Source: Candidatus Hodarchaeota archaeon
GTDB lineage: Archaea; Asgardarchaeota; Heimdallarchaeia; Hodarchaeales; Hodarchaeaceae
Length of the DNA: 38,034 bases
Direction of reading: 5' to 3'
NCBI GenBank assembly: GCA_016840035.1
Contig: JAEOTC010000062.1
Location: forward strand, 1 to 38,034
The translations under genes were made by a program, and so were the position numbers. This document shows positions 9,316-15,381 of this stretch, piece by piece (the stretch's first letter is position 1; every line of letters begins with the position of its first letter). The notes under the pieces are model-generated. The model ran no database searches, was not told the DNA's origin, and worked only from the letters and a program-made list of their open reading frames with translations.

Positions 9316-10290
9316 TTGACGAGAGATCAAATCGATAAAAAAGTAAAATTTATTGGTGGGGTTACAATTGGAATCCTCTTTTTAGCAAGCCTTCTTGCAG
9401 GATATTTCTTCTTATCATTTAAACAGATTGGATATAATGAATTTGGTTTAAATCAAGATACAATAAGTCAAAGGATTGAAGAAAAGGTATATGAAAAAGG
9501 ATTGTATCATGTTGGAATATTTCATCGATTCATAAAATTTCCAAAAACAGTTCAGAAAATTGAATTTTTTAATACCTTGGGAAGTTCAGGAGATCCATTA
9601 GGTCCATTAAATTCACGGACGCAAGATGGGTTATTGATACATATCCAGTTAGCATTTCACTATCGTCTTCAGAAGAATGATATCCTGAATTTATATGGTA
9701 CATTCGGTTTAGACTATGAAGATCGGTTTGTAGGCCAAGCACGGACTACATTACGAGATGTAGTCAGTTTCTATTCAGCTATCGAGTTCTTTACTAATCG
9801 AACAATAATTGCGGAAACGATGGAGATTGACCTCAATACTGACTTACAGGATATGTATGTAGATGTTGTATTTTTTCAGATGCGTGAAATAGATCTCCCT
9901 GATGAGTTTGAAGAAGCCTTGAAACAAGTACAAATAGCCCAGCAGCAATATCAGATCGCTCTTTATGAACAGGAAGCAGCAATTGTACGTGCTCAAACAG
10001 CCATAATCGAAGCCCAAGCTCAAGCAAATATCACTGTTCTTACCGCTGAAGCCGATGCAGAAGCGTATCTTATCTCTATAGACGCACAAGCCCAAGCAGT
10101 AAATATTACTTTGACAGCCGAAAAACTTGCATATTATGCTATGGGACAGCAACTTAATTTAACTTCAAGCGAGCTTCTAGCTTTATTGTGGGTTATGGCC
10201 GTTCGAGATCACGATTCATCGCTCCTTATAATTGGTGCAGATACCCCAATTTTGATTGAAAACGAATTAAATACTACAAAAAGTCTTTAA
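9316..10290 (+). CDS. SPFH/band-7/prohibitin-domain membrane protein
   Basis: N-terminal TM; RTQDGLLIHIQLAFHYRL; QMREIDLPDEFEEA; Ala/Glu-rich coiled coil (EAQAQA...AEADAEA). Confidence 0.88.
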   Translation: MTRDQIDKKVKFIGGVTIGILFLASLLAGYFFLSFKQIGYNEFGLNQDTISQRIEEKVYEKGLYHVGIFHRFIKFPKTVQKIEFFNTLGSSGDPLGPLNSRTQDGLLIHIQLAFHYRLQKNDILNLYGTFGLDYEDRFVGQARTTLRDVVSFYSAIEFFTNRTIIAETMEIDLNTDLQDMYVDVVFFQMREIDLPDEFEEALKQVQIAQQQYQIALYEQEAAIVRAQTAIIEAQAQANITVLTAEADAEAYLISIDAQAQAVNITLTAEKLAYYAMGQQLNLTSSELLALLWVMAVRDHDSSLLIIGADTPILIENELNTTKSL

Positions 10291-10499: not shown

Positions 10500-11987
10500 A
10501 TGACTAAATTTCTTCATTTCTTTGCCCCCTTAATCTCAAGGATACCTGAGGTTAACACCCCATCCAAAGAGCAATCTTTTGGTAAGAAACTCGGATTAAC
10601 TCTAGCTGTTTTCCTGATTTTTAATTTACTCACACTTCTTCCAGTGGTTTATGAGGATCGTGATCCATATAGATTTTTTCGGACTTTCACAAGTTTTCCT
10701 CAATTTAATCTAGCGGTACTAGGGGTTCTCTCGATGATACTTGCAGGATTGACTTTGCTTTCATTCCAAGGACTAAAAATAATCAATATCGAATGGAATA
10801 ATCAAGAAGATCGCTACCTCTACAATGGAACTCTAAAAGTTCTTAGTTTGATATTTACAGTTATCGGTGCCTTATTACTAATAATTACAGGATTTTTTGG
10901 TGAGTATCTCCTTCTTGGGGATATGGTTTCAATATTTATACAACTGGGATTTGCTGGAGTGCTAATTGTCTATCTTGATGAAACGCTTAAGAAAGGATGG
11001 GGCTTTGGCTCGGGTCTTTCTTTATTTATAGGAAGTGTTGCGCTTAGTGAGATTACAGCGGGATTATTCTCTGTCCAAAGGATAAATGAAGGATCACCTC
11101 GTACTATTTCATTTGAAGGACTTGTTCCTGCGTTCCTTAATTGGATCCATAAAGAAGGGTTGAATAATGCTTTTAATAAATTGTTTATAAGATATAGCAC
11201 AAATTCTCTTGATTATTTGAAGCTACCTAACCTTTCTATTCTTTCATTGCTTCTCACAGTTCTCGTTGCCAGTCTAGTGATTATTCTTGAATTTAAACGT
11301 CCAAAAATTACATTTCATAACGAAATCCAAAGAGAATCTTACCTAACGCCCTTAATTCCTCTTCTCTTAGTCACCTTTGTGCTTATGATAATTCGATTTG
11401 CCTTGCAATTTACAATTTCTGTTTTTGGAATAAGAGGAGGGGCTTTCATAGGGATGTATGAATTTGATCCTCATTCGGGAAGGTACATTCTAACAGGAGG
11501 CCTCCTCTCTTTTCTGCTTCCCCCTCATTCAGTGATCATAGACATTCTAAAAAATCCTCTGATGACCTTAATAAGAGTATTAACTTTTTCCTACGTTTTT
11601 CTCTTTACATTTATGAAAATCACAAATGTCATGTTTAAACAAATGGGTTTTAAATCCACTAATGAAAACACGGTCCTTCTCAAAACTCGCTGGACAATTA
11701 TTGCTGTTATCGCGGTTTGTGCGGAGATTTTCAACCCTTGGGGGATAGGATTTCTGATGGTTCCTTTAACACTAATTTTAATCGAGTATTATAGATTATT
11801 TGTTGAGAGCGAATCAGCTCTATTCGTAAATTTTGACATTAGTCTTGTGAGGCATAAGTACTCTCATACTTCCGATATCCCTTACATAAGAGGATTCCAT
11901 TTTTGGATCATGGTAGGTCTAATTAGTATAGGGATGTTCTTACTCCGCTTCGTCTTATTTACCTCTGAGATTCGGAGAACCTTTTAA
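10500..11987 (+). CDS. Divergent SecY/Sec61-alpha paralogue
   Basis: IPEVNTP..QSFGKKL, DPYRFFR, EDRYLYNG and YLDETLKKGWGFGSGLSLFI resemble archaeal SecY/Sec61-alpha. About 10-11 TM segments; the C-terminal half is strongly diverged. Confidence 0.8.
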   Translation: MTKFLHFFAPLISRIPEVNTPSKEQSFGKKLGLTLAVFLIFNLLTLLPVVYEDRDPYRFFRTFTSFPQFNLAVLGVLSMILAGLTLLSFQGLKIINIEWNNQEDRYLYNGTLKVLSLIFTVIGALLLIITGFFGEYLLLGDMVSIFIQLGFAGVLIVYLDETLKKGWGFGSGLSLFIGSVALSEITAGLFSVQRINEGSPRTISFEGLVPAFLNWIHKEGLNNAFNKLFIRYSTNSLDYLKLPNLSILSLLLTVLVASLVIILEFKRPKITFHNEIQRESYLTPLIPLLLVTFVLMIIRFALQFTISVFGIRGGAFIGMYEFDPHSGRYILTGGLLSFLLPPHSVIIDILKNPLMTLIRVLTFSYVFLFTFMKITNVMFKQMGFKSTNENTVLLKTRWTIIAVIAVCAEIFNPWGIGFLMVPLTLILIEYYRLFVESESALFVNFDISLVRHKYSHTSDIPYIRGFHFWIMVGLISIGMFLLRFVLFTSEIRRTF

Positions 11988-12134: not shown

Positions 12135-12473
12135 ATGAGAAAGCAATTGTTTGTTTTATTTAATTATAACAAAGGAATATTCACCCATATCCTACTAAAT
12201 GTATTAGATTTAGCAGAAAAAGGCTATCAAGTGGGTGTAATCTTCGAGAGTGAGGCCTGCAAATTCATTACAGACTTTGAAGATAAAGGATACGATAAGT
12301 TTGAACAACTAAAAGAAAAAAACCTAGTTTACGCAGTATGCGAGGTATGTGCCAAGTCCATGAAAGCCCTCGAAAGTGCTCAACGACAGGGATTGCCAAT
12401 AAATGGTAATTTGTCTGGTCATCCCCCATTACGAAATTGGATTAAGCTTGATTATGATGTGATGCTAATATAA
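12135..12473 (+). CDS. DsrE-family protein
   Basis: VIFESEA, AVCEVCA and LSGHP pattern of DsrE/F-like proteins. Confidence 0.7.
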   Translation: MRKQLFVLFNYNKGIFTHILLNVLDLAEKGYQVGVIFESEACKFITDFEDKGYDKFEQLKEKNLVYAVCEVCAKSMKALESAQRQGLPINGNLSGHPPLRNWIKLDYDVMLI

Positions 12474-12569: not shown

Positions 12570-13991
12570 ATGAAAGTTGTGACAGAATACGCTGATTTAG
12601 CAGATTTCGGGATGGAATACGCCCGTAACCAAGGGGCGGATTATTCGGAAGCCAGATTAATCGATGGGCAACGAGTTGCTTTTATTTTACAAAATGGTAA
12701 TTTAATATCTGGATCGGAACTCCCTTGGAAGGGAATCGGATTCAGAGTGCTGTGTAACGGTGGATTATCATTTGTTTCTGTAGATAATCTTACTAAGAAA
12801 GCTATTAAGAGTGCTATTAATTCTAGTGTGAAAATGGCAAAGAATTCGAACCCTAAGGAAAAGATTGATTTTGGTGAACCAGTCTCTAATGTAGCAAAAT
12901 GGGAAGTTCCTACAAAGGAGAATTTGAGGGATGTAACCAGCGAAACAATGATCAAAAAATTGCAGGAAATGGATCAAGTAGCCGAAGATGCGGGAATTAA
13001 TACCCGTGCTTGTATTTTTGAATCTCAAAGTCTAACAAAATATTTAGTCACATCTGAAGGAACAAAAATTGAGTCTGATCTATCCCTACTAAAACTCTAT
13101 GGAATTTTGACCGCTAAAGGTATTCTAGACTCCGAACAACGGTTTGTTGACCTCACTCGCAGCACAGGTTGGGAAGGAACGAAAACTTGGGTAGATGAAT
13201 ACGAGAATGAGTGTAAACGAATAGTCAAAGTTTCAGCTCAAGCAGATTATAAATTATCAGGAAAAGTCGATTTTGTTGTTGGGCCTGAAGTAGTGGGGAT
13301 TATTTGCCATGAAAACGCAGGACATCCCTCAGAAGGAGATAGAATCATGGGAAGAGAAGGTGCTCAAGCAGGAGAGTCATTTTGGCGGGATTTAACCCTT
13401 GGAGAATCACGTGTGGGATCAAACCACGTTACCATTCTTGAAGATCCAACTATTCCAGGTACGGGAGGATATTATCTATATGATGATGAAGGTGTTAAAG
13501 CTCGTGAACGTGTTCTCATTAAAGAAGGTATAATCACAGAACCTCTCTTGAATCGTGAATTCGGAGTTAAGTTTGGGATGGGTTCTAATGGATCCTCCCG
13601 ATCTTCAGATTTTAATCGTGAACCGATAATTCGAATGGCTAATACATACATGAAACCAGGTGATTTTCCCCTTGATGAATTAGTTGAAGATGTAAAACAC
13701 GGAATCTACATGCTCTCCTTCACTGAATGGAATATTGATGATCGAAGATATCAATCGAAATATGTAGGGTTTGAATGTTATGAAATCAAGGATGGAGAGA
13801 TTACTGACAAGATGGTCAGAAGGCCCGTAATGGAATTAACTTCTATTGGATTGTTTTCCTCCATTGATGGAGTTACTAAAGATCTCAAATTTGATTTCCC
13901 AGGAGTTTGTGGTAAATCAGACCCAGGACAAGGAGTTCCTGTTTATGCAGGTGGTGGATCGATTAGAATGCGAGGTATTAGACTAGGTTAA
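12570..13991 (+). CDS. tldD: TldD metalloprotease subunit
   Basis: HENAGHPSEGD (HExxxH), YDDEGV, RMANTYM and C-terminal CGK..GQGVPV..GG. Confidence 0.93.
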   Translation: MKVVTEYADLADFGMEYARNQGADYSEARLIDGQRVAFILQNGNLISGSELPWKGIGFRVLCNGGLSFVSVDNLTKKAIKSAINSSVKMAKNSNPKEKIDFGEPVSNVAKWEVPTKENLRDVTSETMIKKLQEMDQVAEDAGINTRACIFESQSLTKYLVTSEGTKIESDLSLLKLYGILTAKGILDSEQRFVDLTRSTGWEGTKTWVDEYENECKRIVKVSAQADYKLSGKVDFVVGPEVVGIICHENAGHPSEGDRIMGREGAQAGESFWRDLTLGESRVGSNHVTILEDPTIPGTGGYYLYDDEGVKARERVLIKEGIITEPLLNREFGVKFGMGSNGSSRSSDFNREPIIRMANTYMKPGDFPLDELVEDVKHGIYMLSFTEWNIDDRRYQSKYVGFECYEIKDGEITDKMVRRPVMELTSIGLFSSIDGVTKDLKFDFPGVCGKSDPGQGVPVYAGGGSIRMRGIRLG

Positions 13992-13992
13992 G

Positions 13993-15381
13993 GTGAAGAT
14001 TATGAATGATGACATAAAATCACTTCTAGATTATGCTATTTCAGTCGGTCAACAGAATAATGTTGATTTTATACTCGGTTTAGGTTCCCAGTCGGTCAAT
14101 AATCAGATTCGGTTCTCTCAAAATAAAATCGATATAAACAAACAATGGCAATCTGATCGGATAGAATTAATGGTTGTTGTAGAGGGCAATCAGGTTGCTA
14201 TTGGATCATTTTCACCTAGAGATGAGGAATATATCAAGGATCGTGTGGAAGCTCAGATAAAATTTGCTCACAATATGACTCCAAGTCCCTTCTTTCAAGG
14301 TTTAGAAACCATTCGACACGATGTTTCTCCCTTAACAGGTCATTATGACTCAAAAATTGATGAATACAAAGAAAAAGCTCCTCAAATGATAAATACTTGT
14401 ATAGATAAAGCTGTGAATTCAGGTGCAAAACGTGTTGCGGGATCTTTCCTGTTCGGAAAGAATTCTTATTATCTTTCTAGTTCCGCCGGCCCTTCTGGAA
14501 GTTTCAAAAATACGTTTTACAATCTCACGGTTCGAGCCTTTCAAGATGAGTTAGATGCTTCTGGTCAAGGTTTGGCTTGTGGACGTATCCCTAATGGCGC
14601 AGAGAAGAAACTGACTGAAGCAGCTGGGAAAGCAGGTCGTTTTTCTAAAATGCATAGCAATGCCAAACAAGCTGAAGCAGGAAAATATGATATCATTATG
14701 AGTCCTGCTGTTGCTGCTAATGTTATTGGCACTATTGTTTCTGATGCGAATCCACTAATGATAATGATGGGTCGTAGTTCTTTAGGTGATAAGATGGGTG
14801 AAAGACTTGCGCCTGATTTTGTCAATGTTGTAGATAATGGCTTACAACCAGGAGGTCTGGCAACATCTCCCTTTGATATCGAGGGAACTCCACGATCTAG
14901 CACGTCTATTTTCACCGAAGGGGTGTTAAAAAGTTTTATTCACAACACTACTACAGGAAACATGTTTCAAGCTGAAAGTACAGGAAATGGAGCATTCATT
15001 AACTTTGGAATGGGTAGTAAGATAATGGCTCCTACTCCCACAAACGTAGTTTTTAATAATGGAGATCATTCCTTTGATGAGCTCTTAGAGACATCACGAA
15101 AAACCATTTATGTTACATGCAATTGGTATACACGATTTACTAGCAAGATATCAACGGAATACAGTACTATCCCTCGTGATGCAGCATTCATTGTTGAAAA
15201 TGGAGAATTATCGACACCGATAAAGAATTTCAGAATTAGTGATAAAATCCTAAATCATTTTGCCAATATTGATGCAATGGGTAACGATCGTGTTCAAGTT
15301 CAGTGGTGGGAGGTACGTGTACCCACTTGGCTTCCGACAATGCGGATTAAAGACTGTCGTGTAACAACCGCAACTCAATAA
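13993..15381 (+). CDS. pmbA: TldE/PmbA subunit
   Basis: Directly follows tldD. RFSQNKI, PFDIEGTP, STGNG and IKNFRISD motifs; lacks HExxxH as expected. Confidence 0.88.
   Translation: MKIMNDDIKSLLDYAISVGQQNNVDFILGLGSQSVNNQIRFSQNKIDINKQWQSDRIELMVVVEGNQVAIGSFSPRDEEYIKDRVEAQIKFAHNMTPSPFFQGLETIRHDVSPLTGHYDSKIDEYKEKAPQMINTCIDKAVNSGAKRVAGSFLFGKNSYYLSSSAGPSGSFKNTFYNLTVRAFQDELDASGQGLACGRIPNGAEKKLTEAAGKAGRFSKMHSNAKQAEAGKYDIIMSPAVAANVIGTIVSDANPLMIMMGRSSLGDKMGERLAPDFVNVVDNGLQPGGLATSPFDIEGTPRSSTSIFTEGVLKSFIHNTTTGNMFQAESTGNGAFINFGMGSKIMAPTPTNVVFNNGDHSFDELLETSRKTIYVTCNWYTRFTSKISTEYSTIPRDAAFIVENGELSTPIKNFRISDKILNHFANIDAMGNDRVQVQWWEVRVPTWLPTMRIKDCRVTTATQ

Follow-up and report, generated by a model that had tools for sequence, protein, structure and literature searches.

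The gene considered here lies at positions 10500-11987 of a 38,034-nucleotide stretch of DNA (the window, which is the whole of the sequence analysed) from Candidatus Hodarchaeota archaeon (contig JAEOTC010000062.1, assembly GCA_016840035.1). It is an intact open reading frame (ORF) on the plus strand, and its product of 495 aa appears to combine a divergent SecY/Sec61alpha channel with a transmembrane (TM) helix derived from SecE/Sec61gamma. Its parts are listed below by nucleotide position in the window, strand and residue numbers of the product, together with the evidence on which each assignment rests. Model confidence is given as the predicted local distance difference test (pLDDT) of an AlphaFold2 (AF2) model.

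10500..11987, plus strand: whole gene, paralogue joining SecY(Sec61alpha) to SecE(Sec61gamma), 11 TM helices predicted (ORF, phmmer, AF2, Foldseek, tree)
10656..10700, plus strand: plug region, residues 53-67, DRDPYRFFRTFTSFP (D-P...R signature retained; pLDDT <50)
10719..10742, plus strand: gate motif LGVLSMIL of TM2b, residues 74-81 (alignments, position table)
11295..11342, plus strand: degenerate cytosolic loop 6/7, residues 266-281, KRPKITFHNEIQRESY (alignment; low pLDDT at ~271-280)
11352..11426, plus strand: TM7, residues 285-309, with I297 at the gate polar position and the family-invariant R299 (alignment)
11637..11672, plus strand: truncated cytosolic loop 8/9, residues 380-391, KQMGFKSTNENT (alignment)
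11808..11891, plus strand: cytosolic linker after TM10, residues 437-464 (invariant columns; predicted coil, pLDDT ~53)
11892..11981, plus strand: TM11, probable SecE/Sec61gamma-derived helix, residues 465-494 (AF2 helix, pLDDT ~82; sister tails compared with SecE; tail profile)

The relationship to SecY is evident over most of the protein. In a phmmer search of the PDB, human Sec61alpha is the top match (residues 3-383, E 1.2e-28), and matches to archaeal SecY lie at ~1e-17. Identity to the canonical SecY of the same genome amounts to 38% over residues 2-379. For NF006341, the NCBIfam equivalog of archaeal SecY, the score is 92.6 bits where 300 would be required, and a Pfam scan of the protein yields no match at E<=1. 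An alignment of 47 sequences yields a confident AF2 model (pLDDT 83.9, predicted template modelling score 0.85) with eleven long helices. The best Foldseek match of this model is 7tm3_1 (Sec61alpha; E 5.5e-17, TM-score 0.70/0.74); 56 PDB matches lie at E<=0.001, and among the 50 listed each one is a SecY/Sec61alpha chain. According to the model, the product thus keeps the SecY-type clamshell fold of 10 TM helices. Several hallmarks of the channel interior are retained as well. The core motif GWG.GSG is present, and the plug signature D55-P...R61 is kept, of which D55 and R61 are near-invariant among the 47 SecY sequences, although the model is uncertain in this plug helix (TM2a) region. Of the six pore-ring positions, the sixth of which lies in TM10, five were mapped via the alignment; these, V76, I80, L173, I177 and L289, are all aliphatic.

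The genome is a metagenome-assembled genome (MAG) of 4.3 Mb in 293 contigs, 87% complete and with 4% contamination. It carries four SecY-like genes, one canonical and three divergent (the copy at 10500-11987 and those on contigs C247 and C277), besides one SecE and one Sec-beta. The canonical secY, on contig C71, encodes 502 aa, reaches 216 bits against PF00344 and shows GIGPIVT at the gate, YPIKLLYVSNIP and PGWRR. A search with SecA_DEAD found no SecA in this 87%-complete genome. A preliminary description of the window had regarded the gene at 10500-11987 as a non-canonical SecY/Sec61 paralogue, on account of a Sec61alpha-like N-terminal part, the motif LGVLSMIL in place of the gate motif, short loops 6/7 and 8/9 devoid of the YPIKL and PGFR-type motifs, and an additional hydrophobic helix at the C-terminus. 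All of these features are borne out by the alignments and the model, and the presence of a second, canonical secY in the genome and the SecY fold of the model agree with a divergent paralogue. The description had also pointed to the lack of ribosomal-protein genes nearby. This holds for the window; it is uninformative, however, because the canonical secY too is located outside a ribosomal-protein cluster, the nearest uL15-like gene being ~24 kb away. What the description had not recognised is the SecE nature of the additional helix and the position of the gene as one of three fusion copies in the genome, of which it is the most derived and eroded. As a separate observation on the canonical locus, a large secreted-protein ORF (L005:3217-4179, plus strand) is divergent from the canonical secY (G000:C71), and a 321-aa part of it has no match in Pfam.

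Losses are seen on the cytosolic face, where the hairpin loops 6/7 and 8/9 of SecY normally dock the ribosome, or SecA, through conserved basic residues. Loops 6/7 and 8/9 and the C-terminal tail form the ribosome-docking surface of SecY (PMC6098224). Between the markers at the end of TM6 and the 'IP' of TM7, loop 6/7 of the product comprises 21 residues versus 29 in canonical copies and is devoid of the RIEIP...YPIKL hairpin. Across the fusion family, this loop consists of 21-23 unconserved residues, compared with 28-29 in canonical proteins. Loop 8/9 is reduced from 40 residues to 12, by which the ribosome-contacting PGW/FRR hairpin is deleted, and a loop of exactly 12 residues is found in all eight full-length fusion members (8/8). 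The C-terminal region is rebuilt in the whole family: TM10 is followed by an F-x-x-F-D motif, a variable linker of ~25 residues and TM11. In the present protein, the invariant motif is F442-x-x-F445-D446 (nt 11823-11837), and the linker is otherwise unconserved. The loss of this docking surface speaks against a co-translational mode. A protein without both docking hairpins and a normal C-tail would be unable to dock a translating ribosome. It might be objected that the ribosome is still bound through another surface, e.g. the linker, as this cytosolic segment carries an invariant motif. Such an arrangement appears very improbable: a loop 8/9 of this length barely joins TM8 to TM9, loop 6/7 is unconserved even inside the family, and the linker is a coil predicted with low confidence.

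The lateral gate has changed in a similarly consistent manner. Where the canonical copy has LGIGPIVT, the product shows LGVLSMIL, so that S78 stands in place of the conserved Pro and L81 in place of the gate Thr, while V76 and I80 remain hydrophobic. The Glu of the preceding 'ELG' is V73, a change seen in this copy only. In TM7, I297 aligns with the gate polar residue that is N300 in human Sec61alpha and Asp in the canonical copy of the same genome. The polar cluster of the gate, T86/Q127/N300 in human and T/E/D in the genus, hence reads L81/G123/I297; the positions of Q127 and N300 are non-polar in 8/8 fusion members. Two residues past the gate position, R299 is an invariant Arg in the fusion family, whereas canonical copies have Tyr there. 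Altogether, 15 residues are invariant in the family, R299, F442, F445 and D446 among them, and all 15 are present in the product. What the polar cluster does has been described (PMC3518225; bioRxiv 10.1101/2022.08.11.503542). In yeast Sec61, non-polar substitutions within it stabilise the closed channel and lower translocation of CPY, but leave integration of the DPAPB signal anchor undiminished (PMC3518225).

These gate residues also permit another explanation, namely that the protein is a SecY-derived membrane protein no longer conducting polypeptides, which would serve as a scaffold or decoy for translocon partners, or as a lipid-scrambling or ion conduit. A hydrophobic cluster of the kind that stabilises the closed state in yeast would suit such a role, as would a charged Arg invariant in TM7, the poorly predicted plug region, the loss of the usual cytosolic docking sites and the lack of a SecA-like motor among the genes found. 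This explanation is nevertheless considered unlikely, as the hydrophobic pore ring, GWG.GSG, the D-P...R of the plug and the 10-TM clamshell are kept, as expected if polypeptide passes, and as yeast signal anchors were still integrated when the gate carried substitutions of this kind.

The third peculiarity is TM11. It is modelled as a single helix of 30 residues and is predicted to run from inside to outside (N-in/C-out), because TM10 of SecY ends on the cytosolic side; this orientation matches that of the TM helix of SecE. The single SecE of the genome, whose gene adjoins spt5/nusG, ends with IRFIIFVILGREL (in the longer form ...GLVAFVIRFIIFVILGREL), and sister tails of the fusion family end with LRFIVFVILGREL, or with V/M as the last residue. 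More generally, the tails of the C247 copy, of the copies in the congeneric genomes G014 and G002 and of the metagenomic P0006 and P0012 end with ...LRF(I/V)(V/I/A)FVILGRE(L/V/M/I). BLASTP aligns the G014 tail with the SecE of the present genome at 14/21 identities (E 6e-8). When a hidden Markov model (HMM) built from nine fusion tails alone was run against the 33,317 six-frame ORFs of the whole genome, SecE ranked first after three self hits (E 1.3e-4), and the 3' ends of the fusion genes and of secE can be aligned as DNA too. Within the genus, the SecE ending LGRE(L) occurs only in G000 (the present genome), G004, G014, G002 and G020, that is, in the sub-clade carrying intact fusions. Six of nine fusion tails score best against SecE of this sub-clade, and the SecE of other congeners ends differently. 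Sec-beta was considered as a source of TM11 and rejected, since the tail HMM scores it at 2.0 bits. The second-best non-self match of the HMM is a hydrophobic ORF of 43 aa on the minus strand of G000:C217 (E 0.0016; ...FISLILLFSITTFLCHFLHFSL...), which could be a chance match or a remnant.

In the product of 10500-11987 itself, the terminal signature ...FVILGREL is eroded to ...LFTSEIRRTF (tail ...LRFVLFTSEIRRTF), while its closest sister, P0006, retains RFVIFVILGREL. A terminal frameshift was rejected as the cause, as ILGREL is found in no other frame; the odd end is due to divergence, to which small indels perhaps contributed. The tail of this copy alone matches SecE marginally (E 0.048), and its SecE origin rests on descent, as the clade to which it belongs is monophyletic. 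Judged from the sequences, TM11 of the fusion family derives from SecE/Sec61gamma. That it arose de novo or from a Sec-beta-like helix, and resembles SecE through hydrophobic convergence, could be maintained on the grounds that the similarity spans only ~21 residues of the TM segment and is non-significant for the present copy. This is scarcely credible, given that 11/12 residues agree, the polar LGREL end among them, that the match is specific to the SecE of the sub-clade with fusions and visible in DNA, and that SecE is the top non-self match genome-wide whereas Sec-beta stays at 2 bits.

The fusion family comprises the three copies of the genome, one copy each in G014 and G002 (B3_Heim) and the metagenomic sequences P0004, P0005, P0006 and P0012. 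B3_Heim has been placed in the Hodarchaeota clade (PMC8813620). When only the C-terminal half served as query, the family was detected in 4/83 genomes of the class, all belonging to one genus; in one of these four, G011, it is represented by a pseudogene only. Among 1.84 billion representatives searched with a profile, only three further full-length members and a few fragments came to light. A scan of metagenome contigs gave 28 loci, 0 of them covering the tail; the identities listed are mostly 23-37%, and these loci look like ordinary SecY/Sec61. A feature search of the ESM Atlas likewise returned ordinary SecY/Sec61 clusters only. In the phylogeny, the fusion clade is monophyletic with a support of 100 in the Shimodaira-Hasegawa-like approximate likelihood-ratio test (SH-aLRT), and the present copy is sister to P0006 (support 93). 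It is grouped (support 99) with another clade, made up of tail-less divergent copies (P0007, P0008, P0010 and G017_C8). The two are placed next to the genus's canonical copies, and the SecY of the neighbouring family falls outside the clade that unites them all (support 100). In the free tree, the divergent copies branch outside all of these canonical ones; that the fusion clade arose inside the 'LGREL' sub-clade is not rejected by the approximately unbiased test (p 0.295). Judged from the tree, the duplication of secY is specific to the lineage and falls within the genus; it is not ancestral to anything eukaryotic, and no sign of ancestry to a eukaryotic feature was found.

Taken as a whole, these features would fit an accessory channel or insertase that is self-clamped, works independently of the ribosome and handles strongly hydrophobic segments of a restricted set of clients, a reading to which a probability of roughly 0.6 is assigned. 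Insertion or translocation would proceed without a docked ribosome, and the SecE clamp helix, which in the canonical complex lies diagonally against the back of SecY (TM1/5/6/10), would here be supplied in cis and render the channel independent of the single free SecE. The hydrophobic gate would impose a high hydrophobicity threshold and would suit secretion less well than the insertion of strongly hydrophobic segments. Such a threshold is suggested by the behaviour of yeast Sec61, in which a non-polar gate spares signal-anchor integration and impairs secretion depending on weaker signals. The preliminary description had spoken of a neofunctionalised translocon paralogue. The divergent paralogue without ribosome-docking loops is upheld; neofunctionalisation is plausible in view of a ratio of nonsynonymous to synonymous substitution rates (dN/dS) of ~0.4, new invariant motifs and at least nine members.

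Several observations weigh against the accessory-channel reading. The number of copies per cell is uncertain, the genome being an incomplete and slightly contaminated MAG. The present copy is on the longest branch of the fusion clade (1.74), and several residues retained by its sisters are missing from it: the Glu of ELG, the TM2b Pro and the LGRE end. To the short SecE match of the tails and its marginal value in this copy is added that the amphipathic helix and hinge of SecE (KPDRSEV in the genus) are undetectable upstream of the last ~21 residues, where the linker is predicted as coil. Neither a conserved neighbourhood nor a conserved promoter accompanies the copy. Moreover, the family seems dispensable, because a congener, G011, carries a fusion-type pseudogene (L022, G011:C12:193248-193562, minus strand, and flanks), recognisable by its short loop 8/9, tail and TM11 and interrupted by stops and frameshifts. 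It also speaks for a family range that is somewhat wider, or older. Finally, the dN/dS of the fusions is relaxed relative to canonical copies: it is 0.40 between the fusion copies of G014 and G002 (0.36 for the tail), while the canonical genes of these two genomes give 0.17. For the gene at 10500-11987, dN/dS is 0.42 at a dS of 0.40 over 289 codons, measured against P0002, the only ortholog found, which is a fragment of 292 aa with 72% identity. By these ratios, selection on the fusion copies is relaxed yet remains purifying.

These features raise the question of whether the present copy is a redundant duplicate drifting to loss, intact by chance and with no function of its own. Its branch length, the eroded SecE-like end together with the lost residues, the decayed relative in G011 and the unconserved upstream region would all be expected in that case, and so would the state of its sole ortholog, the frame of which departs from that of the present gene near the end of a contig with a coverage of 1.8. 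However, a frame of 495 codons is still open, dN/dS remains at the value given, 15/15 family-invariant residues are kept and the AF2 model is confident. Drift to loss is therefore regarded as quite improbable, less probable even than a non-conducting protein.

Other copies in the genus are of interest beside the fusions. In G017:C8, a second SecE-like gene (L046:2707-2946, minus strand; ending ...LIRVIVFLILGRSFR) is located directly upstream of a tail-less SecY (L046:1177-2664, minus strand). A SecE2/SecY2 pair of the same kind is present in G001:C6 (L045), and the match to SecY2 in G001 contains a TAG. As SecE2 adjoins the tail-less copies and SecE is fused elsewhere, the accessory SecY copies of the genus come with a private SecE. 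On the contig of P0005, the fusion gene (L128:366-1883, plus strand) is followed in tandem by a SecY-like gene (L128:2131-2922, plus strand; PF00344 70 bits), which is cut by the contig end. Many congeners, a single-contig genome among them, carry two near-canonical Sec61alpha genes with intact ribosome loops (e.g. L036 and L041; G010:C1:2764860, 3222868). A very divergent SecY, in which loop 8/9 is short and one more TM is added at the C-terminus, was found on a contig of 2.2 kb (L125:428-1903, plus strand; P0066, Logan SRR29093006); on a branch of 3.4, it could be a distant member of the fusion family or an independent case. In a congener, a SecY from a contig of 2.1 kb (L047, G006:C312) groups with other lineages (P0024) and not with the genus, and is probably bin contamination.

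Comparison with known systems helps to define what is unusual about the fusion. With the canonical SecYE-beta/Sec61 complex (1RHZ, 7TM3) it shares the 10-TM clamshell (TM-score ~0.7), GWG.GSG, the pore ring, the plug signature and an N-in/C-out helix of SecE type. It differs in that alpha and gamma form one chain, in the 12-residue loop 8/9 and the degenerate loop 6/7, and in the hydrophobic gate, the new Arg of TM7 and the lack of a detectable amphipathic SecE helix. Second, divergent SecY proteins with their own SecE-like partner, acting beside the housekeeping channel, are known from the bacterial accessory Sec system (SecA2/SecY2, Asp4/Asp5) and from plastids (SCY2/SECE2). The likeness lies in a divergent second SecY with a private SecE and presumably few clients; in those systems, however, SecY and the SecE-like subunit are separate, whereas they are fused here, and the duplications are independent. 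Bacterial accessory Sec is, in addition, driven by SecA2, whereas no SecA_DEAD match is found here in the 87%-complete genome, and the neighbours of the present gene are SPFH, a 112-aa ORF, TldD and PmbA instead of SecA2 and glycoprotein client genes. Inside the genus, the closest parallel to accessory Sec is the adjacent SecE2 and tail-less SecY2 of G001 and G017.

For E. coli, SecY and SecE have been linked covalently by engineering, in a single-chain SecE-SecG-SecY (Park and Rapoport 2012, PMC3432775). In that construct, the order of the parts is another one and the ribosome- and SecA-binding loops are kept, whereas the fusion described here is loop-less and occurs naturally. In yeast, Ssh1 (2WW9) is likewise a paralogue of the main channel originating from a lineage-specific duplication, but has ribosome-docking loops, was solved bound to the ribosome and has separate small subunits. 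In the literature, neither a natural SecY-SecE fusion nor a report of Sec61alpha paralogues in Asgard archaea was found.

The contacts that SecY makes with SecE and the ribosome count as invariant in textbooks. To our knowledge, SecY/Sec61 is universal and nearly always single-copy in archaea, and four Sec61alpha homologues in one MAG represent an unexpected multiplication of the translocon in the archaeal group nearest to eukaryotes. A broader proposal, that a lineage of the Hodarchaeales built a second, ribosome-independent system of insertion or translocation from natural Sec61 alpha-gamma fusions, of which one genome has come to carry three, is tentative and at present rather doubtful. If true, it would imply, in conjunction with the SecY2/SecE2 pairs and the duplicated near-canonical Sec61alpha of congeners, specialised archaeal translocons for individual clients or membrane domains, and would constitute an independent experiment in eukaryote-like translocon diversification within the Asgard group placed nearest to eukaryotes. 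A natural loop-less channel with a SecE helix in cis lets one test the contribution of the SecE TM on its own, the post-translational use of SecY in an archaeon without SecA, and the setting of clients by gate polarity. General importance is limited by the narrow range (one sub-clade of one genus and a few metagenome sequences) and by the pseudogene in a congener.

The genes flanking the fusion in the window are the following.

9316-10290: SPFH/Band7 gene, upstream neighbour
12135-12473: ORF of 112 aa, no family, downstream neighbour
12570-15381, plus strand: TldD/PmbA metalloprotease gene pair, downstream of the 112-aa ORF

A role tied to the SPFH or TldD/PmbA neighbours was considered and dropped, as this neighbourhood is common to no other family member. 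The region upstream of the gene does not align with the upstream region of the P0002 locus. Elsewhere in the family, a double winged helix-turn-helix protein of the type HTH_HVO_0163_N is encoded directly upstream of the fusion gene, namely in C247, G002, G014, P0004 and P0006. Matches to this family are rare in the genome (six only, two of them above the family cut-off), and within the window no HTH_HVO_0163 gene accompanies the present copy. This pattern points to a fusion family that was ancestrally a separately regulated unit with an adjoining regulator, which the copy at 10500-11987 lost. Two further genes of the window were noted in passing. A protein of 994 aa (window:3417-6401, plus strand) contains a PPDK_N domain and a weak match to a response-regulator receiver below the Pfam cut-off, and a DUF1156 protein of 871 aa (window:15979-18594, minus strand) gives weak methyltransferase matches and resembles methylases of defence systems.

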